A DNA stretch of 64,000 nucleotides from Escherichia coli (GTDB lineage Bacteria > Pseudomonadota > Gammaproteobacteria > Enterobacterales > Enterobacteriaceae): NCBI RefSeq assembly GCF_003019035.1, contig NZ_CP027447.1. One strand, written 5' to 3'. The first letter of the stretch is position 1; every line of letters starts with the position of its first letter. Of the stretch, positions 2,139 through 36,805 are shown one piece after another. The notes beneath the pieces are model-generated. The model did no database searches. It saw only the letters and a list, made by a program, of their open reading frames with translations, and was not told where the DNA came from. Position numbers and translations under genes: made by a program.

Positions 2139-3080
2139 ATGAGCACTAAATTAACCGGCTATGTATGGGATGGTTGCGCTGCGTCAGGCATGAAGTTATC
2201 CAGCGTGGCAATTATGGCCCGCCTGGCTGATTTCAGTAATGACGAAGGTGTGTGCTGGCCATCAATTGAAACCATTGCCCGCCAGATTGGCGCGGGGATG
2301 AGCACCGTCAGAACGGCTATCGCACGGCTGGAAGCAGAAGGCTGGTTAACGCGTAAGGCGCGTCGCCAGGGTAACCGCAATGCGTCGAATGTTTATCAGC
2401 TTAACGTTGCGAAGCTTCAGGCAGCGGCATTTTCTCAACTGTCAGATTCTGACCCGTCAAAATCTGACGCATCAAAATCTGACCAGTCAAAATTTGATGC
2501 GTCGAAATCTGGCAAAAAAGCGGGTTTTCACCCGTCAGAATCTGGCGGGGATCCGTCAGTAAAATCAAAACATGATCCGTCAGATAAAAAACCTTCTCGT
2601 CCGGACGCTTCGCAACCGGACACGCAGACGGATGAACAGGATTTTTTAACTCGCCATCCTGATGCGGTTGTATTCAGCCCTAAAAAGCGCCAGTGGGGAA
2701 CGCAGGATGATTTGACCTGCGCACAGTGGCTCTGGAAAAAAATCATCGCCCTGTACGAGCAGGCCGCCGAGTGTGACGGCGAGGTGGTTCGTCCCAAAGA
2801 ACCTAACTGGACAGCCTGGGCAAACGAAATTCGCCTGATGTGTGTGCAGGATGGTCGTACTCACAAACAAATCTGCGAGATGTATAGCCGCGTCAGCCGC
2901 GATCCGTTCTGGTGCCGTAACGTGCTCAGCCCGTCGAAGCTGCGGGAAAAATGGGATGAGCTTTCCCTGCGCTTATCGCCGTCCGTCAGCACGTACACCG
3001 AAAAACGCGAAGACCCGTACTTCAAAGCCAGTTACGACAATGTGGACTACAGCCAGATCCCGGCAGGATTCAGGGGGTGA
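2139..3080 (+). CDS. Phage replication initiation protein (O-like, N-terminal winged-helix DNA-binding domain)
   Basis: 313 aa; an internal DNA repeat array (iterons) encodes an SKSD-rich linker; position after the cro-proximal genes. Confidence 0.65.
   Translation: MSTKLTGYVWDGCAASGMKLSSVAIMARLADFSNDEGVCWPSIETIARQIGAGMSTVRTAIARLEAEGWLTRKARRQGNRNASNVYQLNVAKLQAAAFSQLSDSDPSKSDASKSDQSKFDASKSGKKAGFHPSESGGDPSVKSKHDPSDKKPSRPDASQPDTQTDEQDFLTRHPDAVVFSPKKRQWGTQDDLTCAQWLWKKIIALYEQAAECDGEVVRPKEPNWTAWANEIRLMCVQDGRTHKQICEMYSRVSRDPFWCRNVLSPSKLREKWDELSLRLSPSVSTYTEKREDPYFKASYDNVDYSQIPAGFRG
2441..2590. repeat. Iteron array (putative phage replication origin) inside the replication gene
   Basis: At least 6 direct copies of a ~12-bp unit (c)GTCAAAATCTGA(c) and variants at ~14-15 bp periodicity. 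Confidence 0.7.
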
Positions 3081-3571
3081 TCATGAGTCTTTTGAATGAC
3101 GTTCAGAAATTCATTGAAGCCCATCCGGGGTGTACTTCCGGAGACATTGCGGATGCTTTTGCAGGTTACTCACGACAGCGCGTTCTGCAGTCAGCAAGCA
3201 AGTTACGTCAGAGTGGGCGTGTGGCTCACCGTTGTGAAGGGGATACACGCAGACATTTCCCGCGGCTGACTGAGATACCGCAGGAGCCGGAACCGCAACC
3301 AGTTCGTGAATCCAGACCTGTGCGCAATTTCTATGTCGGCACTAACGATCCCCGGGTGATTTTGTGCCTGACCCGCCAGGCGGAAGAACTGGAGTCCAGG
3401 GGCTTATACCGTCGTGCTGCAACGGTGTGGATGGCGGCATTCCGTGAAAGCCACTCCCAGCAAGAGCGAAACAATTTTCTTGCGCGTCGTGAGCGGTGTT
3501 TACGGAAAAGCAGCAAGCGCGCTGTATCGGGTGAAGAGTGGTATCTGTCAGGGAATTACGTGGGGGCTTAA
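3077..3571 (+). CDS. PerC-family-like transcriptional regulator (tentative)
   Basis: 164 aa; the YRRAATVWMAAF segment resembles the RRAAxxW core I recall from PerC/Pch proteins; not aligned. Confidence 0.35.
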   Translation: MIMSLLNDVQKFIEAHPGCTSGDIADAFAGYSRQRVLQSASKLRQSGRVAHRCEGDTRRHFPRLTEIPQEPEPQPVRESRPVRNFYVGTNDPRVILCLTRQAEELESRGLYRRAATVWMAAFRESHSQQERNNFLARRERCLRKSSKRAVSGEEWYLSGNYVGA

Positions 3572-3897
3572 TGACGACGTTAACTCAATGCCAGCAGCAG
3601 GTGCTGGATATGCTGATTTCTTATCAGAAAGAGCGTGGCTTTCCGCCAACCAATCAGGAGGTGGCAACCATGCTGGGATACCGTTCGGTGAATGCAGCGG
3701 TGGAGCATCTTCGCGCACTGGAGAAAAAAGGTGTCATCACGATAAAGCGTGGCGTGGCCCGGGGTATCACTCTTCATACCGCGGTGAAGGACGACGACAG
3801 CGAGGCGGTCGGGATTATCCGCTCACTGCTTGCCGGTGAGGAAAACGCAAGGCTGCGTGCAACCCACTGGTTACATGAGAGGGGCCTGAAAGTATGA
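3571..3897 (+). CDS. LexA-N-terminal-type winged-helix DNA-binding protein
   Basis: 108 aa from ATG 3571; pattern similar to the LexA DNA-binding domain without a peptidase domain. Confidence 0.5.
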   Translation: MTTLTQCQQQVLDMLISYQKERGFPPTNQEVATMLGYRSVNAAVEHLRALEKKGVITIKRGVARGITLHTAVKDDDSEAVGIIRSLLAGEENARLRATHWLHERGLKV

Positions 3898-6114: not shown

Positions 6115-6456
6115 ATGCGTGATATGTATGAAGTATTGGACCGCTGGGGTGCATGGGCTGCAGCAGATAACAGTGGTGTGGACTGGCAGCCTGTTGCTGC
6201 AGGGTTTAAAGGTTTACTACCTCATGGAAAGAAAACACGCCAACAATGCGATGATGATGAAGGAATCATGATTGACAGCTGTGTTGCGCGATTGCGGAAA
6301 TATAAGCCCGAAGAGTATGAGTTGGTTATTGCTCATTTTGTTATCGGCATCTCACTAAGAACTATTGCAAAGAAGCAGAAGTGTTCTGATGGGACAATAA
6401 GAAAAGAGTTGCAAACAGCTCTTGGTTTTCTGGATGGTGTGCTTTCAATGTTGTAA
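6115..6456 (+). CDS. Late-gene antiterminator Q-like protein
   Basis: ~113 aa; last early gene before the late region; DRWGAW-containing N-terminus resembles small Q-type antiterminators (recalled). Confidence 0.5.
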   Translation: MRDMYEVLDRWGAWAAADNSGVDWQPVAAGFKGLLPHGKKTRQQCDDDEGIMIDSCVARLRKYKPEEYELVIAHFVIGISLRTIAKKQKCSDGTIRKELQTALGFLDGVLSML

Positions 6457-6460
6457 TATT

Positions 6461-6486
6461 AGGGGGAATTACCCCCCTTTTTTTCT
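6461..6486 (+). terminator. Rho-independent terminator after the Q-like gene
   Basis: GGGGG-AATTA-CCCCC hairpin followed by a run of 8 T; overlaps the last codons of the convergent membrane-protein gene. Confidence 0.6.
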
Positions 6487-7017
6487 CTGTTGCTTTAATA
6501 AAATTTTGATATTTTGTCTGATTATGATGAGGCAATGTAATAAAAGAAATACCGTTAGTATTGCAAGCCATACGCAAAATAAGCATGCATATAAATTAGT
6601 TGAAAGTCCAATAGTGAATTGTGCAATTGCTGTTGTGATAGAACATAATATTGATGTATTAATAAATGAGGATAAATTGTCTAAAGGTTTATAAAGTACA
6701 CTATCATTGATTTTGTCAATAGGTATACCAGTGGCAATGCTATAAATTTCCTTATATTCCTGAGTTGCAAAAACCTTATCGCGTAAATTTATTATGACAA
6801 AGGTATGCAGGCTCAATAAAAATGAGCCCACGGAAATAAAACCGGAGAAGAGATAGCCTCGTAAGTTTTTATGATAAAAATCAAAAAAGTTAACACTTAC
6901 TTTAGGTGTGTTTCTGTACAATAGGTAAAGTGCAAGCAATGCCAGGATCGAGAATGCAAGCAGTGTAAGGTACTGATACCTCAATCTTTTATTTATTAGC
7001 CATTCATATAAAGGCAT
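6469..7017 (-). CDS. Small integral membrane protein with four predicted helices, downstream gene of the two-gene moron
   Basis: 182 aa; hydrophobic segments at about residues 16-34, 45-68, 117-137 and 142-165; basic C-terminus (QQRKKGG); translationally coupled to the 308-aa gene. Confidence 0.55.
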   Translation of the reverse strand: MPLYEWLINKRLRYQYLTLLAFSILALLALYLLYRNTPKVSVNFFDFYHKNLRGYLFSGFISVGSFLLSLHTFVIINLRDKVFATQEYKEIYSIATGIPIDKINDSVLYKPLDNLSSFINTSILCSITTAIAQFTIGLSTNLYACLFCVWLAILTVFLLLHCLIIIRQNIKILLKQQRKKGG

Positions 7018-7930
7018 TTTTATTCGTCCCGTTCAGCATTTCTTCTTTTATCATATCAAAAACAGGGTTTGTTGTATAATTATCGTTTGTCAATCCATTG
7101 ACTTTATCGGCAATTATATCGAAATCGTATGTTTCAAAAAAAACAGGGCAGTTCATAAAATCAATGGTTTTTTCTATTCCTGCATGGTTTACTGCAATAA
7201 CCTGTGCTTTAGTAACTCCACTCATAGAATTATAAATATTTGAAAGATTCTGAGATAGTTGTTGCACTTTTGTTCTGTCGCTAGAATTAAAATTCATATC
7301 TATTGTGGTGGTGTTAACAAATTGTTCAAGCGCAGTCATTGGTCCACCTTTAAAATCTATATAATTAAATTTAAAGCTTGTGCTTTTAATCTCTTTGAAT
7401 TGACATAAAACACTCTGAATGTTGTTTTTATTTGTCATAAGGCTGAAAGTCAGTCTTTCTTTGTATTTTTTATTTATTGCAGTTACTTCTTTTTGTTTTG
7501 GTTTATCACCAAGTTTTTTTATTTCTTCTTTATTTTGATTTCTGATAAATTCATTACTTATTGTTTCTAAATGAGAAAAGAGAGTGTTCAGACTGCATGA
7601 ACCGTGGTGATACATATAGAGACCAGAAAGATTAGATTTTTTAATTAAGAAAAAGTTGAAATTAGCAAGTTTGTCACTTCCTTGAAGATCTTCAATTTTA
7701 AGCTGGAATTTACCATCAACAAATTGCGACTTACAGTTCTTTTTTTGGTTTCTGAATGTGACAACTAATCCATAATAGAAATCATTCACATCCGAAATGA
7801 GAATTTTACGAGTATAGTCTGTGCGACTGTGTTCTCTGTTTGATGCGTTGATAAAAGCATTCATTACGTCAACGGTATTAATATTTTTGTTATTGTTATT
7901 TATTGTAAATCCTATGCTTCTAACTTTCAT
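7004..7930 (-). CDS. Hypothetical protein, upstream gene of a two-gene moron (candidate sensor/effector partner)
   Basis: 308 aa, Asn/Lys-rich and AT-rich coding sequence; its stop overlaps the start of the downstream membrane-protein gene by 14 nt; no recognisable catalytic motif. Confidence 0.55.
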   Translation of the reverse strand: MKVRSIGFTINNNNKNINTVDVMNAFINASNREHSRTDYTRKILISDVNDFYYGLVVTFRNQKKNCKSQFVDGKFQLKIEDLQGSDKLANFNFFLIKKSNLSGLYMYHHGSCSLNTLFSHLETISNEFIRNQNKEEIKKLGDKPKQKEVTAINKKYKERLTFSLMTNKNNIQSVLCQFKEIKSTSFKFNYIDFKGGPMTALEQFVNTTTIDMNFNSSDRTKVQQLSQNLSNIYNSMSGVTKAQVIAVNHAGIEKTIDFMNCPVFFETYDFDIIADKVNGLTNDNYTTNPVFDMIKEEMLNGTNKNAFI

Positions 7931-8049
7931 GTGTATTCCAGGACCGACTAAAGATAGCGAGAATGGGGACGCATAGTTTATAAAAATCCTAACGCGTACG
8001 CAAAAAGTATTATATCGTGTTAAGAGTGGTTACTTCGCCACACAACTTA

Positions 8050-8074
8050 AACCCGCCGCTGAGCGGTTTTTTTG
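8050..8074 (+). terminator. Rho-independent terminator (tR'-like) at the start of the late region
   Basis: GC-rich hairpin (CCGC-TGA-GCGG, extended by AAAC/GTTT) followed by 7 T; an AT-rich promoter-like stretch (TATTATAT) lies ~40 bp upstream. Confidence 0.5.
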
Positions 8075-8194
8075 TACCTGTAAACCTTGTGCAGTACAGT
8101 AAACACGCTGGTGGTCGTGAATACTGGCTTTTTATCTTGCTGGCTTTTTAGACAAGAGTTATTGGTATGTCATGTTAACCAGAAGGGAAAAGAC

Positions 8195-8398
8195 ATGCTA
8201 AAACAGCAAGATATGACAGAAACCGCCGCCGCAGTCCTTCATTTCTTACCTGCTGACAAGTGGGTAACGCCACGCATGATGACGAGAACTACCGGAGTAA
8301 GCGAAGCCCGGTGCCAGTTAATACTGACTCAGTTAGTTCTGGCGGGTCTGGCGAAGGATAACGGCGGGTACGGGAATAAATTCAGACGCTGCCAGTAA
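8195..8398 (+). CDS. Small hypothetical protein (possible winged-helix DNA-binding)
   Basis: 67 aa from ATG 8195 with SD AGAAGGGAAAAG; first gene after the tR'-like terminator. Confidence 0.4.
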   Translation: MLKQQDMTETAAAVLHFLPADKWVTPRMMTRTTGVSEARCQLILTQLVLAGLAKDNGGYGNKFRRCQ

Positions 8399-8548
8399 TG
8401 GCGGTTTCCTGCTGTGAAAATGGGCGGCTGGTGGGTGTTGGTAGCACCTGCCAGCCATTCGCTCATGCTTACTGGTCACAAGCGAACCACGGCCCACTGC
8501 TTTAGCGCAAAAGCAGAGTGAGCCTACCAGAGTTACGCTTACTGATCC

Positions 8549-9601
8549 ATGAAAAATACTGTAAAAATAAACAGTGTTGATTTAATCAACGCTGATTGCC
8601 TGCATTTTATTCAGTCCCTGCCTGATGATTCCATTGACCTGATTGTTACCGATCCGCCTTACTTCAAGGTGAAACCTAACGGTTGGGACAATCAGTGGAA
8701 AGGGGACGAAGATTACCTTAAGTGGCTGGACCACTGTCTGGCCCAGTTCTGGCGGGTGTTAAAACCTGCCGGAAGCCTTTACCTGTTCTGTGGGCATCGC
8801 CTGGCATCTGATATTGAGATCATGATGCGTGAACGTTTCAACGTGCTTAACCATATCATCTGGGCGAAGCCGTCCGGACGTTGGAATGGGTGTAATAAAG
8901 AAAGTCTGCGCGCATATTTTCCTGCCACAGAGCGCGTTCTGTTTGCTGAACATTACCAGGGGCCATATCGCGGCAAAAGTGACGGCTATGCGGCAAAAGA
9001 AAGGGAACTCAAACAGCACATAATGGCACCGCTGATATCGTATTTCAGGGATGCTCGTGCCGAACTGGGTATAACGGCAAAACAAATTGCCGAAGCCACA
9101 GGTAAGAAAAATATGGTTTCCCACTGGTTTGGTGCCAGTCAGTGGCAGTTGCCGAATGAGGCTGACTATCGGAAGTTACAGGCACTGTTTTCCCGTATAG
9201 CGGCAGAGAAGTTTCAGGAACAACAACTGGAACAACCACACCACCAGCTGGTGGCATCTTATGATTCACTGAATCGCAAATATTCTGAATTGCTGGATGA
9301 GTTTAAATCTCTCCGGCGCTATTTCTCCGTATCAGTCTCCGTGCCTTATACCGATGTCTGGACGCATAAGCCCGTTCAGTTCTACCCGGGTAAACATCCG
9401 TGCGAGAAACCGGCGGATATGCTCCGGCAAATAATCAATGCCAGTAGTCGACCTGGTGATCTGGTTGCTGATTTCTTTATGGGATCCGGTTCCACAATAA
9501 AAGCAGCAATGGCGCTGGGGCGTCGGGCGTTAGGTGTTGAACTTGAGTCAGAGCGGTTTAATCAGACGGTGAAAGAGGTAAGTGAACTGGTGGGGAAATA
9601 A
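8549..9601 (+). CDS. DNA methyltransferase (N6-adenine/N4-cytosine, beta-class)
   Basis: 350 aa; catalytic DPPY motif (IVTDPPYF) near the N-terminus and AdoMet-binding FxGxG (DFFMGSGST) near the C-terminus. Confidence 0.85.
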   Translation: MKNTVKINSVDLINADCLHFIQSLPDDSIDLIVTDPPYFKVKPNGWDNQWKGDEDYLKWLDHCLAQFWRVLKPAGSLYLFCGHRLASDIEIMMRERFNVLNHIIWAKPSGRWNGCNKESLRAYFPATERVLFAEHYQGPYRGKSDGYAAKERELKQHIMAPLISYFRDARAELGITAKQIAEATGKKNMVSHWFGASQWQLPNEADYRKLQALFSRIAAEKFQEQQLEQPHHQLVASYDSLNRKYSELLDEFKSLRRYFSVSVSVPYTDVWTHKPVQFYPGKHPCEKPADMLRQIINASSRPGDLVADFFMGSGSTIKAAMALGRRALGVELESERFNQTVKEVSELVGK

Positions 9602-9677
9602 TTCTGGTGGCCACGTTGCGTGGCCTTTTTATTTCCAACACAGCACCCGCAAATATCGCGAGGTGAGAGATGACGAA

Positions 9678-10004
9678 ATGCCTCATAACCCAAATACCTG
9701 GCTGGACTTGGTCCAGAGCTGGTGGCGTGGAGACACACCGCTGGGTGCAGTGATTATGTCGATCGTTATGGCTGGTTTGCGCATCGCCTATTTTGGCGGT
9801 GGTGGTGGCTGGAAGCGAAAAACGCTCGAGATTTTGCTATGTGGCGCTCTGACGCTGACCTTTGCATCCGCTCTTGAGTATGTCGGATGGCCTAAATCAC
9901 TATCTGTTGCCATTGGTGGTGGGGTGGGGCTGATCGGTGTCGATGCTATTCGTGGGGCTGCAATGCGAGTAATCGGTAACAAGTTTGGTGGCTCTAAGGA
10001 GTAA
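9678..10004 (+). CDS. Holin
   Basis: 108 aa; hydrophobic helices with a glycine-rich central segment and charged C-terminus; directly precedes the endolysin. Confidence 0.7.
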   Translation: MPHNPNTWLDLVQSWWRGDTPLGAVIMSIVMAGLRIAYFGGGGGWKRKTLEILLCGALTLTFASALEYVGWPKSLSVAIGGGVGLIGVDAIRGAAMRVIGNKFGGSKE

Positions 10005-10007
10005 TTT

Positions 10008-10484
10008 ATGCAGGTACTAAATTCCCAGCGTAAAGCTTTCCTTGATATGGTGGCTTGGTCAGAAGGAACGGATAACGGACGACAACCGACACGTAACCAC
10101 GGTTATGACGTTATTGTCGGTGGTGAACTCTTCACTGATTACTCCGATCACCCTCGCAAACTTGTCACGCTAAACCCGAAACTCAAGTCAACAGCCGCCG
10201 GACGTTACCAGCTTCTTTCACGCTGGTGGGATGCTTACCGTAAACAGCTTGGCCTGAAAGATTTTTCTCCAGAAAGCCAGGACGCTGTAGCTTTGCAGCA
10301 GATTAAAGAGCGTGGCGCTTTACCGATGATTGACCGTGGCAATATTCGTCAGGCAATCGACCGTTGCAGCAATATCTGGGCGTCATTACCTGGTGCAGGT
10401 TACGGTCAGTATGAACATAAAATCGGTGACCTGATTGCACGGTTTGAAGAGGCTGGTGGGGTGATAAATGAAGTTGAGCTATAA
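10008..10484 (+). CDS. Endolysin, lambda R-type lytic transglycosylase
   Basis: 158 aa, near-identical in pattern to lambda R (NSQRKAFLDMVAWSEGTDNGRQ ... WASLPGAGYGQ). Confidence 0.9.
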   Translation: MQVLNSQRKAFLDMVAWSEGTDNGRQPTRNHGYDVIVGGELFTDYSDHPRKLVTLNPKLKSTAAGRYQLLSRWWDAYRKQLGLKDFSPESQDAVALQQIKERGALPMIDRGNIRQAIDRCSNIWASLPGAGYGQYEHKIGDLIARFEEAGGVINEVEL

Positions 10485-10860
10485 GCTGGTTATCGCTGCT
10501 TTCTTCGTTACTGTCATTGGTTCTTTCATCTGGTCAGCCAACCACTACTACAGCAAATATCAGTACGAAAAGAAACGTGCTGATGAGGCTGAACGAAATG
10601 CTGGATCAGCAACAGCCATTACCAATAACGTCCTGCAATCACTGCAAATCGTCAATACAGTACTGGAGGCTAACCAGCGTGCAAAACAGCAGATCGCACT
10701 GGAGTCACAAAGAACCCAGGAAGATATCAAAATGGCCGTTGCGGATGATGATTGTGCTTCACGTCTTGTGCCTGCTGCCGCTGCTGAGCGGTTGCGGAAG
10801 TATGCGGACAGTTTACGTGAACACTCCGACGGTACCACTGCCAGCCAGCCTGACGGCTGA
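10468..10860 (+). CDS. Rz-like inner-membrane spanin
   Basis: 130 aa; N-terminal transmembrane helix then coiled-coil-like region; follows the endolysin. Confidence 0.65.
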   Translation: MKLSYKLVIAAFFVTVIGSFIWSANHYYSKYQYEKKRADEAERNAGSATAITNNVLQSLQIVNTVLEANQRAKQQIALESQRTQEDIKMAVADDDCASRLVPAAAAERLRKYADSLREHSDGTTASQPDG

Positions 10861-30968: not shown

Positions 30969-31036
30969 AACGTTTATGAAAATGCAGAAATAACGAGCAA
31001 ATGGCATCATTCCTGCTTTTGTCAGGGAGATCTACC

Positions 31037-31591
31037 ATGCTTATTGGCTATGTACGTGTGTCAACAAATGACCAGAACACAGATCTACAACGTAATGCGC
31101 TGAACTGTGCAGGATGCGAGCTGATTTTTGAAGACAAGATAAGCGGTACAAAGTCCGAAAGGCCGGGACTGAAAAAACTGCTCAGGACATTATCGGCAGG
31201 TGACACTCTGGTTGTCTGGAAGCTGGATCGGCTAGGGCGTAGTATGCGGCATCTGGTCATTCTGGTTGAGGAGTTGCGCGAACGTGGCGTTAATTTTCGC
31301 AGCCTGACGGATGCTATTGATACCAGCACACCGATGGGGCGTTTTTTCTTTCATGTGATGGGTGCCCTGGCTGAAATGGAACGAGAACTGATTGTTGAAC
31401 GAACAAAAGCTGGACTGGAAGCTGCTCGCGCACAGGGACGAATTGGTGGACGTCGTCCCAAACTTACACCAGAACAATGGGCGCAGGCCGGGCGATTAAT
31501 TGCATCAGGCGTTCCTCGCCAGAAGGTGGCGATCATCTATGATGTTGGTATATCGACACTGTATAAGAAGTTTCCGGTCGGAGATAAATGA
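31037..31591 (+). CDS. pin: Site-specific DNA invertase Pin (serine recombinase, Hin/Gin/Pin family)
   Basis: ~184 aa from MLIGYVRVSTNDQ; near-identical in pattern to e14 Pin (catalytic Ser in YVRVST; C-terminal HTH). Confidence 0.9.
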   Translation: MLIGYVRVSTNDQNTDLQRNALNCAGCELIFEDKISGTKSERPGLKKLLRTLSAGDTLVVWKLDRLGRSMRHLVILVEELRERGVNFRSLTDAIDTSTPMGRFFFHVMGALAEMERELIVERTKAGLEAARAQGRIGGRRPKLTPEQWAQAGRLIASGVPRQKVAIIYDVGISTLYKKFPVGDK

Positions 31592-31629
31592 AACCGTAGC
31601 ACGTCGTATGCAAGATCGTGCTGCGGTTT
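31591..31629. repeat. Hairpin repeat copy A (AAACCGTAGCACG-n13-CGTGCTGCGGTTT)
   Basis: 13-bp inverted repeat with one mismatch, directly after the pin stop; core shared with copies at 32609..32720 and 37170..37270. Confidence 0.6.
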
Positions 31630-31648
31630 ATGCTTATCACTTAAAGAC

Positions 31649-32518
<870 letters not shown>

Positions 32519-32608
32519 CTAATCCTTTGAATTTACATAGTAAAAAAGATACTTTTCCTCATAGTGTGAGCTAATTTTATGTTTCGTTTGATGATCGGAC
32601 CGGTCTCA

Positions 32609-32720
32609 AAAACCGCAGGCACGTTGTATGCAAGAACGTGCTGTGGCTGGCTGGTGAACTTCCAATAGTGCGAATATTGAATGATTTCTATCTGTTATAG
32701 ATTTTACCGTATTTCGGCAT
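32609..32720. repeat. Repeat copy B (~110 bp) of a dispersed element
   Basis: Shares the core CCGCAGGCACGTTGTATGCAAGAACGTGCTG and the downstream GGCTGGTGAACTTCCAATAGTGCGAATATTGAATGATTTC with copy C (~70% identity by eye). Confidence 0.55.
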
Positions 32721-32981
32721 GAATGAAACTGAATATCCTCCCACCGATTCTCCATGACTTTACGCCACTGTCTCTAGGGCTGCTATGTGCCAGAGGCGGA
32801 CGTTGTTAAAATAGAAAATATCCCAACCTTGTATGAGTCGTGCAATAATTTCGAACTTTATACAAAGCTTTGGTTGTAAAGGTGTATAACCACAAGTGAC
32901 ATTAATCACATTTGTAAAGGCAAAATGCAACAAACTGAATTAGTTAATTGCGTAAATTTGAAGTTATGTTAAGGTGGTGAT

Positions 32982-33114
32982 GGTTTATGGGCAGATTTTG
33001 GGTCGCGTTTCGCGATCAGTGAAAAAAATGTCCGATAGGATTGCCTTTCAGGATCTCATGTTCCTCGCATTTCTTAAGGTTCTTGTCAAGTTTGCGTAAG
33101 AGTGCCCATAAACC
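32982..33114 (+). ncRNA. Candidate retron msr/msd non-coding RNA flanked by inverted repeats a1/a2
   Basis: 12-bp perfect inverted repeats GGTTTATGGGCA (32982..32993) and TGCCCATAAACC (33103..33114) bracket 109 nt; a G follows a1; small hairpin TCGCG-TTT-CGCGA at 33003..33015; ends 20 bp before the RT start. Confidence 0.4.
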
Positions 33115-33133
33115 CTTTTAGAGGCGATCTAAA

Positions 33134-34969
33134 GTGAAACGACTACAATCATTAAAAGAAGCAAAAACAAAACCAGACTTGGCTAAGCTATTAGGAATCA
33201 AACCTTCAGCGTTAACATACTGCCTATATGTATTAAAACCTGAAAATCAATACACACAGTTTAAGATACCAAAAAAAAATGGCGGCGAACGGATAATAAG
33301 TGCACCTAACGGAATATTAAAGACGATACAGTCATCCTTATCAAGACTGCTTCTAGATTGCTTAGACGAAATAGTTTGCATTAAGTTTCCAGACTCAGAG
33401 TTAGCAAGGCAGAAAGCAAAAAACTCAAAAATATTAAAGTTAAAATGTTCCAACTCAGAAATCAAACAACCCTCACTGTCTCATGGATTTGAAAGAAAGC
33501 GTTCAATTATTACAAATGCAATGATGCACTTGGGGAAAAAATATGTTTTTAATATAGACTTGGATAATTTTTTCGGCAGTTTTAACTTTGGTAGAGTCCG
33601 AGGTTTTTTCATAAAAAATAGAAACTTTGCACTCGATCCGGAAATCGCAACTGTAATTGCTAAAATTGCGTGCTACAACAATGAACTACCCCAAGGCAGC
33701 CCATGCTCCCCAGTAATCACTAATCTAATCACTCACTCGTTAGACATTAAACTGGCAGCGATTGCATCAAGAAACTCATCCACTTTTACAAGATATGCTG
33801 ATGATATTACATTCTCTACGAGGAAGGGGGAGTTTCCTTCTGCTATAGCAAAAAATCAAAATGGTAAATATATCGTTAGTAAGAAAATTAGGGGCGAGAT
33901 AACTCGCTCAGGTTTTATAATTAATGATGGGAAGACAAGAAATCAGTATAAAGACTCGAGGCAAGATGTAACAGGCTTAGTGGTTAATAAAAAGCCAAAC
34001 ACGAAAAAAGAATATTGGAGGCTTGTGCGTGCGCAATGTGACCATTTATTTAAACATGGTGAGTTCTTAGAGGTGATTGACGGCAAGGAAATAAAGGGGA
34101 ATGTTAATACCCTTGCAGGCAAACTTAACTTCATAGACCAAGTTGACCACTATAATAGATTGCGTCAAGGCGAAAAATTAAATCCAAAATATCACTTAAA
34201 AAAAGATGCCAATAAAAATGGCCATGCCAAAAAAAGGCGTTACTTACATAGTTCTAGAGAAAAAACGTTTAGTGAGTTTCTCTTCTATCGTTTATTTTAT
34301 GGCAATGAATTACCAACAATTCTTACGGAAGGTAAAACTGACAATATTTATCTGAAGGCAGCAATACATAAGTTAGCCTCATCATTCCCTAATTTGGCGG
34401 TCGCTGAAAGTCCAGGGCTCTCTTATAAGCCACGGACTAAATTTGTTAACTACAATGAGCGGACAAAATATTTACTTGAACTTTATGGTGGTGCTGATTA
34501 TTTAAAGGATTTTGTTATTCATTATAAACAACACTTTAATCGTTATAAGGCTCCCAAACCATCTAATCCAGTAATTATACTTGTTGATAATGATAGCGGA
34601 CCAAAAGATCTGATTAATTACGTTAGTAAAGTTGATAATATTGGTATTTTCCCCACAGGTGTTCCAGATATCCGCGCCTCTGAGTTTGTACATATTTTTT
34701 GTAATCTTTATTTAGTGCTTACCCCTCAAGTTAAGGGATATACAGGAACTGATATAGAGCATTTTTTTAAAGATGCAGATCGACTTAGACCACATAAAGG
34801 TAAGTTTTTCAATACAGTCTCTAAGCGTGATCATGATAATGATTTGAGCAAGGAATCTTTCGCAACTCATATTGTTCATGCCCACAAGCATGAAATTGAT
34901 TTTAGTGGATTTACAAGCCTGTTAGAACGGTTAGTAAAAGTCATAAATCACTTTGACACTGTTAAGTAA
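33134..34969 (+). CDS. Retron-type reverse transcriptase fused to a C-terminal Toprim-like domain
   Basis: 611 aa (GTG start). RT motifs: IPKKNGGER, NAMMH (retron NAxxH), FNIDLDNFF (A), LPQGSPCSPVITNL (B), YADD (C), VTGLVVN (retron VTG); core resembles retron Ec86 RT as recalled. C-terminus carries acidic motifs ILTEGKTD and IILVDND. Confidence 0.8.
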   Translation: MKRLQSLKEAKTKPDLAKLLGIKPSALTYCLYVLKPENQYTQFKIPKKNGGERIISAPNGILKTIQSSLSRLLLDCLDEIVCIKFPDSELARQKAKNSKILKLKCSNSEIKQPSLSHGFERKRSIITNAMMHLGKKYVFNIDLDNFFGSFNFGRVRGFFIKNRNFALDPEIATVIAKIACYNNELPQGSPCSPVITNLITHSLDIKLAAIASRNSSTFTRYADDITFSTRKGEFPSAIAKNQNGKYIVSKKIRGEITRSGFIINDGKTRNQYKDSRQDVTGLVVNKKPNTKKEYWRLVRAQCDHLFKHGEFLEVIDGKEIKGNVNTLAGKLNFIDQVDHYNRLRQGEKLNPKYHLKKDANKNGHAKKRRYLHSSREKTFSEFLFYRLFYGNELPTILTEGKTDNIYLKAAIHKLASSFPNLAVAESPGLSYKPRTKFVNYNERTKYLLELYGGADYLKDFVIHYKQHFNRYKAPKPSNPVIILVDNDSGPKDLINYVSKVDNIGIFPTGVPDIRASEFVHIFCNLYLVLTPQVKGYTGTDIEHFFKDADRLRPHKGKFFNTVSKRDHDNDLSKESFATHIVHAHKHEIDFSGFTSLLERLVKVINHFDTVK

Positions 34970-36556: not shown

Positions 36557-36805
36557 TGCATTGAATGATAAAAATGGCGCAAATACAGCGCCATTTTTAT
36601 AGGTTAAAAACATTGTTTTTAACTTTCTGATGGCAGATAGCCAGTGAGTACATCGCGCTACTTCAGGATGCTGTAGATCCGGAGAACACTATAGAGGAAG
36701 AGGCATTGTTGCTGGCAGATGGAAGAAGTTTCGGGTTTTGTTATCCCTGAAAAACGAAGCCCCGCGATTATAGCTGGCGGGGCAGTGCAATTAATTATTG
36801 CATAT

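Follow-up and report, generated by a model that had tools for sequence, protein, structure and literature searches.

M.EcoGII is the prototype of a family of adenine methyltransferases, has been characterised biochemically, and is sold as a reagent. It is a 349-amino-acid enzyme encoded by a prophage of Escherichia coli O104:H4 C227-11, and it methylates adenine in any sequence context in both DNA and RNA, with single-stranded DNA and RNA also serving as substrates for enzymes of this type (Murray et al. 2018, PMC5778455). The same authors describe the family as ‘very large’ in E. coli prophages and enterobacterial phages, report that M.EcoGI and M.EcoGII are unexpressed in the native lysogen and that constitutive expression is harmful, and assume an anti-restriction role (PMC5778455). 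A reconstructed ancestor of the M.EcoGII clade, Anc291, likewise methylates DNA and RNA without a discernible motif (PMC11551740). Here we examine a related locus at positions 8195–9601 of a 64,000-nucleotide (nt) stretch of E. coli DNA (RefSeq assembly GCF_003019035.1, contig NZ_CP027447.1), the whole of which we call the window. The locus comprises a small gene and a methyltransferase gene within a prophage. We consider it likely that it forms a portable late cassette, whose orphan methyltransferase of the M.EcoGII family would methylate N6-adenine in progeny phage DNA in any context. The only part of the locus that appears new is a structured RNA leader lying directly ahead of the methyltransferase gene.

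A methyltransferase of the M.EcoGII family

The cassette consists of the following features.

8055–8074, plus strand: tR'-like intrinsic terminator, hairpin at 8055–8067 with GCCGCTGAGCGGT, then T7 (terminator scan)
8195–8398, plus strand: 67-amino-acid winged-helix protein of PHROG 331, equivalent to SfV orf47 (open reading frame (ORF), PHROG, AlphaFold and Foldseek)
8389–8412, plus strand: hairpin over the small-ORF stop codon, then a T-rich tract (read from the sequence)
8413–8551, plus strand: conserved structured leader RNA, a three-way junction and a hairpin (covariance model and covariation counts)
8549–9601, plus strand: M.EcoGII-family beta-class N6-adenine methyltransferase, 350 amino acids (PF01555, motifs, identity to M.EcoGII and Anc291)
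9609–9635, plus strand: strong intrinsic terminator just past the methyltransferase stop codon, hairpin at 9609–9625 (terminator scan)

The ATG at 8549 opens a 350-codon frame that ends at 9601, both in the ORF list and in the sequence itself. An initial annotation, made from the sequence without database searches, had read this frame as an intact 350-amino-acid beta-class amino-methyltransferase with DPPY followed by FxGxG, and its coordinates were exact. Pfam family PF01555 (N6_N4_Mtase) matches the protein from end to end (profile positions 1–220 of 221, E value 1.3e-42, 146.6 bits against a cut-off of 26.7), and chance is not a credible account of this match. The motifs DPPY (residue 35), HPCEKP (283) and FMGSG (310) are all intact, and the inactive catalytic motifs that would have refuted the annotation are not seen. 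Their order, with motif IV first, then the target-recognition domain, then motif I, is that of the beta class, and the protein aligns with M.RsrI, CcrM and M.MboIIA. The Dam-type framing of the initial annotation does not survive: the Dam profile PF02086 gave no match in the Pfam search, where PF01555 is the sole hit, the alpha-class order (I before IV) is not seen, and the resemblance is to M.EcoGII instead. PADLOC returned only generic ‘MTase_II’ matches, and the identical protein in RefSeq, WP_000799659.1, is named ‘DNA-methyltransferase’. No restriction endonuclease partner was recognised beside the gene, whose neighbours are the winged-helix ORF and a holin gene, and so the enzyme appears to be an orphan.

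Across 349 aligned positions, the full length, the protein is 81% identical to M.EcoGII, and it is 89% identical to Anc291. Within the central helical domain that recognises the target (from residue ~160 to ~237), 60 of 78 residues agree with M.EcoGII (77%) and 67 of 78 with Anc291 (86%). All these identities are slight underestimates, because the two reference sequences were machine-read from Supplementary Table S1 of PMC11551740 and carry a few optical character recognition errors. On these figures the methyltransferase is a member of the M.EcoGII family, a kind of enzyme that is already known, and the protein itself has been sequenced before. Of 5426 complete E. coli genomes, 1690 (~31%) contain its DNA. 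Proteins that are 98–100% identical are encoded by phages vB_EcoM-720R4, cdtI, SfV (orf48, annotated ‘unknown’), mEp460 and PhiR40_1; those of Stx2a, Stx2c, Stx2d and Stx2e phages are 80–86% identical, with the Stx2a_WGPS2 enzyme being 93% identical to M.EcoGII; and those of Morganella, Yersinia, Klebsiella (phiKO2), N15, Vibrio and Aeromonas phages are 48–64% identical. The methyltransferase gene in itself adds nothing new, being another copy of a very common prophage enzyme.

The product of the small gene had been described in the initial annotation as a putative DNA-binding protein, and this description holds up. The ATG at 8195 starts a 67-codon ORF that ends at 8398, exactly as annotated; the product belongs to PHROG 331 (E value 4.6e-26), and AlphaFold confidently predicts a three-helix winged helix (predicted local distance difference test score 88.8). 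Pfam and NCBIfam gave no match for it. Foldseek finds the model to resemble the winged helices of TrmBL2, IclR, Z-alpha and the RNA-binding SelB, at template modelling scores of 0.6–0.8. Going by the predicted fold, DNA binding is a reasonable assignment, and the protein may act as an RNA binder. In an alignment of relatives the N-terminus (MLKQQDMTETA) and the third helix (RCQLILTQL) do not vary, and the middle is variable. There are two allele types, ~50% identical, found in free combination with the alleles of the methyltransferase; chimeras of the two types also occur, and the NCBI name of the other allele is ‘TrmB family transcriptional regulator’. The ORF lies 145–157 nt upstream of the methyltransferase in lambdoid-type phages and is kept in many phages, and it is not present in the N15-like phages (N15 and Yersinia regions examined). 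We also considered a C-protein of a restriction-modification system and rejected it: the fold is a winged helix, Pfam gave no Xre-type helix-turn-helix, and there is no endonuclease gene.

The structured leader RNA

The leader occupies ~105–135 nt between the upstream terminator and the methyltransferase ATG. Its elements in the window are as follows.

8421–8425 paired with 8492–8496, plus strand: P0 (proposed structure)
8426–8437 paired with 8445–8456, plus strand: P1, which contains a Chi site at 8427–8434 (proposed structure)
8458–8466 paired with 8478–8486, plus strand: P2 (proposed structure)
8498–8503 paired with 8510–8515, plus strand: P3 (proposed structure)
8520–8529, plus strand: conserved tail GAGCCUACCA, including GAGCCUA (alignment)

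When six phage versions of the cassette are aligned, the spacer ahead of the methyltransferase shows more conservation than the flanking coding DNA. A 21-mer from this spacer occurs exactly in at least 120 viral contigs, whose methyltransferases are 54–100% identical to that of the window, and it lies ~130 nt before the ATG wherever a methyltransferase is present. As this sample was selected by the 21-mer itself, 80 further loci were gathered through the N15 protein, and most of these have the same leader architecture with different stem sequences. The leader is thus found upstream of M.EcoGII-family methyltransferases in lambdoid, N15-like and Vibrio phages.

From a plain MAFFT alignment, RNAalifold retrieved no more than P0 and two pairs of P3. 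Because the arms of the hairpins vary too much to be aligned by sequence, the structure was written by hand from the window row and tested by pair counts and controls. For a sequence-only alignment of 40 representatives below 90% identity, a structure of 32 pairs was assessed against controls with slid partners and against shuffles: 80.8% of cells are paired, compared to 30–46% in the slid controls, both sides have changed in 20 of the 32 pairs, and at most 1 of 500 shuffles reached any observed measure. A covariance model was then built from this alignment and the loci were realigned to it. In the model alignment, which is biased towards the structure by the way it is made, pairing reaches 86.8% of cells, covariation is seen in 26 of 32 pairs with none of 500 shuffles matching the observed values, and the covariation score is 0.32, compared to 0.105 or less in slid controls. 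On the window the model gives a single match (8413–8551, 141 bits). Of 86 loci, 80 have one match each, and the match runs up to the methyltransferase ATG in all of them but a Vibrio phage, in which a short ORF stands between the two. The spacing to the ATG is constant in nearly all loci, and the junction and loop nucleotides are conserved. G–U pairs are frequent on the plus strand, where the opposite strand would have C–A mismatches, which indicates that the plus strand is the folding strand. As a structure, the leader is well supported.

Rfam 15 gave nothing over the leader at an E value of 1 or below (window and four diverse loci) or at the gathering score (window), and the permissive matches in searches of this region (fstAT, isrJ and sR52) are at chance level. 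In the literature we found no description of this motif, nor of a methyltransferase between Q and stx. Two further candidates were tried and rejected. For an ORF inside the leader (ATG at 8420, 33 codons), relatives show indels of 1–2 nt in hairpin loops and arms, and some have GTG where the window has ATG. For a pseudoknot, the P1 loop UGGUAG (8440–8444) matches the tail sequence CUACCA (8525–8530) perfectly in the window, but many relatives do not keep this complementarity. In other clades the leader tail pairs instead with sequence nearer the start codon, and in several clades a possible P4 helix joins the invariant GAGCCUA to sequence near the start codon, in differing registers. In some Stx-type prophages, L053 (3340–3530, minus strand) and L124, an AraC-family regulator gene stands in place of both the methyltransferase and the leader's 3' two-thirds; what is kept is the small ORF and about as much of the leader as P1, followed by Met, Arg and Arg tRNA genes.

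The 135-nt spacer might alternatively be a DNA-level feature rather than a functional RNA, either a Chi recombination linker at a module boundary or a protein-binding site. The Chi site (GCTGGTGG) at 8427–8434 lies inside P1, and Chi is nine-fold enriched in the window, with 18 copies compared to 2.05 expected. Sixteen of these fall in the first 21 kb, 14 of them on the plus strand, and six plus-strand copies lie within 2.4 kb (8107–10459) over the methyltransferase and lysis genes, in an orientation that would meet RecBCD coming in at the right, cos-proximal end of packaged phage DNA. The small-ORF and methyltransferase alleles are differently combined across the spacer, as would be expected from recombination there, and the adjoining winged-helix protein could bind the spacer as DNA. 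However, P1 lacks Chi in N15, Yersinia and other versions, in which the hairpins are kept with different sequences, and it therefore does not explain the conservation of the leader. The compensatory changes, the plus-strand G–U pairs and the fixed distance to the ATG are all features that favour RNA, and we regard a purely DNA-level account as unlikely, although RNA and DNA roles of the spacer could coexist.

Whether the leader represents an undescribed class of cis-regulatory RNA, dedicated to M.EcoGII-family genes and gating the translation or stability of a toxic enzyme, we judge to be an even question. Our best guess is that it limits or times translation of the enzyme. The methyltransferase, which binds and methylates RNA and favours A-rich stretches, or the 67-amino-acid protein could bind the leader and so provide feedback control. 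The leader travels with the methyltransferase gene, and in lambdoid phages the winged-helix partner does so too. It offers a concrete, mutable handle for testing what stops a chromosome-wide adenine methylase of a phage from doing harm before infection is in its final minutes.

Late position, proposed role and the distal retron

The surroundings of the cassette bear on when the enzyme would be made, and comprise the following features.

6115–6456, plus strand: antiterminator Q gene, 113 amino acids (Phage_antitermQ, PF06530, E value 2.5e-45)
6461–6478, no strand assigned: terminator hairpin between Q and the convergent minus-strand genes (terminator scan)
6469–7930, minus strand: two candidate cargo genes, 182 and 308 amino acids, outside the cassette (ORFs, PHROG 2802)
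7990–8054, plus strand: conserved ~65-bp block common to Stx2a_WGPS2 and phiP27 (alignment)
9678–10860, plus strand: lysis cassette with a lambda-family holin (9678–10004), GH104 endolysin (10008–10484) and Rz-like gene (10468–10860)

The initial annotation had put the methyltransferase at the head of the late operon, and the neighbouring genes bear this out: Q, whose homologue in ECONIH5 carries the RefSeq name ‘antiterminator Q family protein’, ends at 6456, and the holin gene starts at 9678, with the two minus-strand genes intervening. The annotated relatives that match best are lambdoid/SfV-like prophages with cI/Cro, replication, RusA, KilA-N, DUF968 and Q genes, followed by lysis, HNH, terminase, HK97-type head and sheathed tail genes. 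In SfV, Ayreon, Stx2a_WGPS2, phiP27 and a Morganella phage we see the same order of Q, terminator, small ORF, methyltransferase, then either tRNAs and stx or a terminator, and finally the holin. Even in N15, Yersinia P840, a Vibrio phage and the P2-like Aeromonas phage phiO18P, the methyltransferase adjoins the holin or lysin gene.

The terminators are conserved along with the genes. The one at 8055 has a counterpart annotated as a terminator in SfV (~100 nt past Q) and in Ayreon, and is homologous to the N15 terminator downstream of the annotated late promoter; the one after the methyltransferase is annotated at the same place in SfV, Ayreon and N15. A hairpin and T-tract precede the leader in all clades. 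This terminator is weak in the window (8389–8412) and strong in relatives, including N15-like phages and many others, and its stem sequence varies while the hairpin is kept. The gene pair lies between Q and the holin and is bracketed by intrinsic terminators, an arrangement in keeping with expression that is Q-dependent and late, and with silence in the lysogen. The lysis-side position behind a late terminator, kept from lambdoid to N15-like, Vibrio and P2-like phages, would explain that silence. The block at 7990–8054 may hold the late promoter and the initial transcribed region.

Pfam, NCBIfam and PADLOC gave nothing for the minus-strand pair at 6469–7930, whose one assignment is PHROG 2802 (function unknown), and the cassettes of SfV, Ayreon and Morganella lack the pair. 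The two genes overlap and are AT-rich, the 182-amino-acid product looks hydrophobic, and Stx2a_WGPS2 has a gene pair in a similar place. They are candidate cargo or defence genes.

The target of the methyltransferase is most likely any adenine, not GATC, because the 81% identity to M.EcoGII includes 60 of the 78 target-recognition residues. Moreover, the tested members of the clade are non-specific and the methyltransferase falls inside it, so that non-specific activity would be expected from its 81–89% identity to the tested enzymes. The likely absence of specificity alters what a methylome experiment should look for. A sequence-specific orphan enzyme, CcrM- or YhdJ-like or with a new motif, is very unlikely. 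NCBIfam does show partial resemblance to the PRK11524 (YhdJ) and CcrM models, below both family cut-offs, and the closest solved structures are an unnamed methyltransferase (9c3u/8urk) and the sequence-specific M.RsrI, M.MboIIA and CcrM; in principle, a few substitutions in the target-recognition domain can alter specificity. However, the matches of the YhdJ/CcrM type and those to structures are limited to the catalytic core (residues ~7–154 and 269–345) and leave the central domain outside, and that domain is 77–86% identical to two enzymes shown to be non-specific, M.EcoGII and Anc291, which bracket the window protein phylogenetically.

We propose that a portable cassette of terminator, winged-helix gene, structured leader, methyltransferase gene and second terminator sits directly downstream of a Q-dependent late promoter and upstream of the holin. 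In the lysogen, transcripts from the late promoter would stop at the first terminator and the toxic enzyme would remain unmade. After induction, Q-modified RNA polymerase would read through, such that the enzyme is made alongside the lysis and morphogenesis proteins, at a level most likely set by the leader that abuts its Shine-Dalgarno-less start codon. The enzyme would then methylate replicated phage DNA ahead of packaging, and the progeny could resist many adenine-sensitive restriction systems in the next host. Protection from host restriction was also suggested in the initial annotation, and is the same supposition as that of the M.EcoGII authors (PMC5778455).

Several points weigh against this proposal. 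The specificity is extrapolated over 19% divergence from M.EcoGII. For the natural members of the family, an anti-restriction benefit is an assumption made by the M.EcoGII authors (PMC5778455). The start codon at 8549 has no recognisable Shine-Dalgarno sequence before it, so expression could be poor. Finally, a consensus promoter scan of 7931–8054 gave no convincing late promoter and the minus-strand pair separates Q from the cassette, and the case for Q dependence therefore rests on synteny.

The far end of the same prophage-like block carries a retron.

31001–34969: distal prophage cargo, comprising a pinE invertase, a LEM-3-like GIY-YIG gene (minus strand) and an Ec67-family retron reverse transcriptase/endonuclease

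The enzyme of the Ec67 element is a Dam homologue, an alpha-class methyltransferase acting at GATC. Retron Ec67 itself is described as part of a 34-kb element that carries a Dam methylase and is set within a prophage related to 186 (Hsu et al. 1990 and Dodd & Egan 1996, as described in PMC7826664 and listed in PMC8989520). The initial annotation named such an element as one that would fit the retron locus of the window, and this is right in part: the literature does report an Ec67 element with a Dam methylase, and the product of the gene at 33134–34969 is a reverse transcriptase/endonuclease of the Ec67 family (NF038237, 742 bits, cut-off 450; match at 33134–34966). Both the backbone and the methyltransferase class are different, though. 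The backbone in the window is not of the 186/P2 type, having a Q of lambda type and a holin, together with HK97-type head genes and a tail with a sheath. We found no Dam homologue in the window. The early ‘phage N-6-adenine-methyltransferase’ of ECONIH5 is also absent from the window; at 3077–3897 a PerC-like gene directly precedes a LexA-DNA-binding-domain gene, where ECONIH5 has the 654-bp methyltransferase gene between the two. With a lambdoid/SfV-like backbone, another methyltransferase class and a cassette that is widespread, the parallel with the Ec67 element is superficial. What the two share is a prophage with an Ec67-family retron and an adenine methyltransferase. In the Ec67 element, a Dam homologue is carried on a P2/186-type backbone with the retron beside cos, whereas the window has a beta-class, M.EcoGII-like enzyme on a lambdoid/SfV-like backbone with the retron by the tail-fibre invertase.

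The methyltransferase and the retron could in theory be functionally coupled, for example if methylation of multicopy single-stranded DNA (msDNA) arms or disarms the retron. The two share one prophage-like block, retron-Sen2 is triggered when Dam methylates its msDNA (bioRxiv 10.1101/2020.06.22.160242), and M.EcoGII-type enzymes act on single-stranded DNA and RNA (PMC5778455). Yet the cassette, in 1690 genomes, is far more widespread than the retron; no retron was seen in the cassette-bearing phage regions examined, many in number, with flanks of only 2.5–4 kb; the loci are 23.5 kb apart in different modules; and in the H60 relative a cytosine methyltransferase and a restriction enzyme occupy the slot by pinE and the GIY-YIG gene. 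An interaction is conceivable, nothing in the analysis supports it, and we give coupling a very slim chance. An Rfam search of the whole window at the gathering score reported no msr/msd RNA upstream of the reverse transcriptase. It did return an IS009 RNA (36562–36763, 191.7 bits) just past the prophage end, by yagU/ecp-type host genes.

That the methyltransferase is a silent or decaying passenger without function in this prophage is barely plausible: M.EcoGI and M.EcoGII are indeed unexpressed in their native lysogen (PMC5778455), the ATG lacks a Shine-Dalgarno sequence, and L053 and L124 have lost the gene to an AraC-family one, but the frame here is complete and no motif is broken, isolated phages encode 100% identical proteins, and the conservation of gene order, leader and terminators across genera, together with the intact frame, indicates purifying selection.

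Comparison with known systems

The leader shares several properties with known cis-acting leaders of phages and bacteria (riboswitch-like 5' untranslated regions, autoregulatory leaders and HK022 put), as it is structured, covaries, and holds a fixed position in the 5' untranslated region past a terminator. It differs in matching no Rfam 15 family in sequence or structure, and from known attenuators in that P3 has no U-tract, so that it is no obvious attenuator.

The closest cassettes are those of SfV (orf47–orf48), mEp460, cdtI and Ayreon (‘DNA methylase’), which encode a 98–99% identical enzyme with the same terminators and leader. They differ in having other Q genes, and SfV has the other small-ORF allele (~51% identical). 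We found no functional studies of these methylase genes in the literature. N15 gp52 and its phiKO2 and Yersinia relatives are more distant, with a methyltransferase that is 56–61% identical. They nevertheless keep the same order of late promoter, terminator, leader of the same architecture, methyltransferase, terminator and holin, while differing in that they have no winged-helix ORF, wholly different hairpin sequences, and no Chi in P1.

Among characterised enzymes, Anc291 and SUPREM (PMC11551740) are reconstructed ancestors of the M.EcoGII clade, and the motif-free Anc291 is 89% identical to the window protein; both are synthetic proteins, without a genomic context or leader. M.EcoGII is itself a beta-class, prophage-borne orphan of ~350 amino acids, 81% identical to the window enzyme with the central domain included, and its 93%-identical copy in Stx2a_WGPS2 occupies the same site between Q and lysis genes, with the same small ORF and leader. 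The window allele, diverging from M.EcoGII by 19%, is of the SfV/mEp460 type. In Stx2 phages, tRNAs and stx follow the methyltransferase and the leader sits on a transcript that reads into the toxin genes, whereas in the window the holin follows directly.

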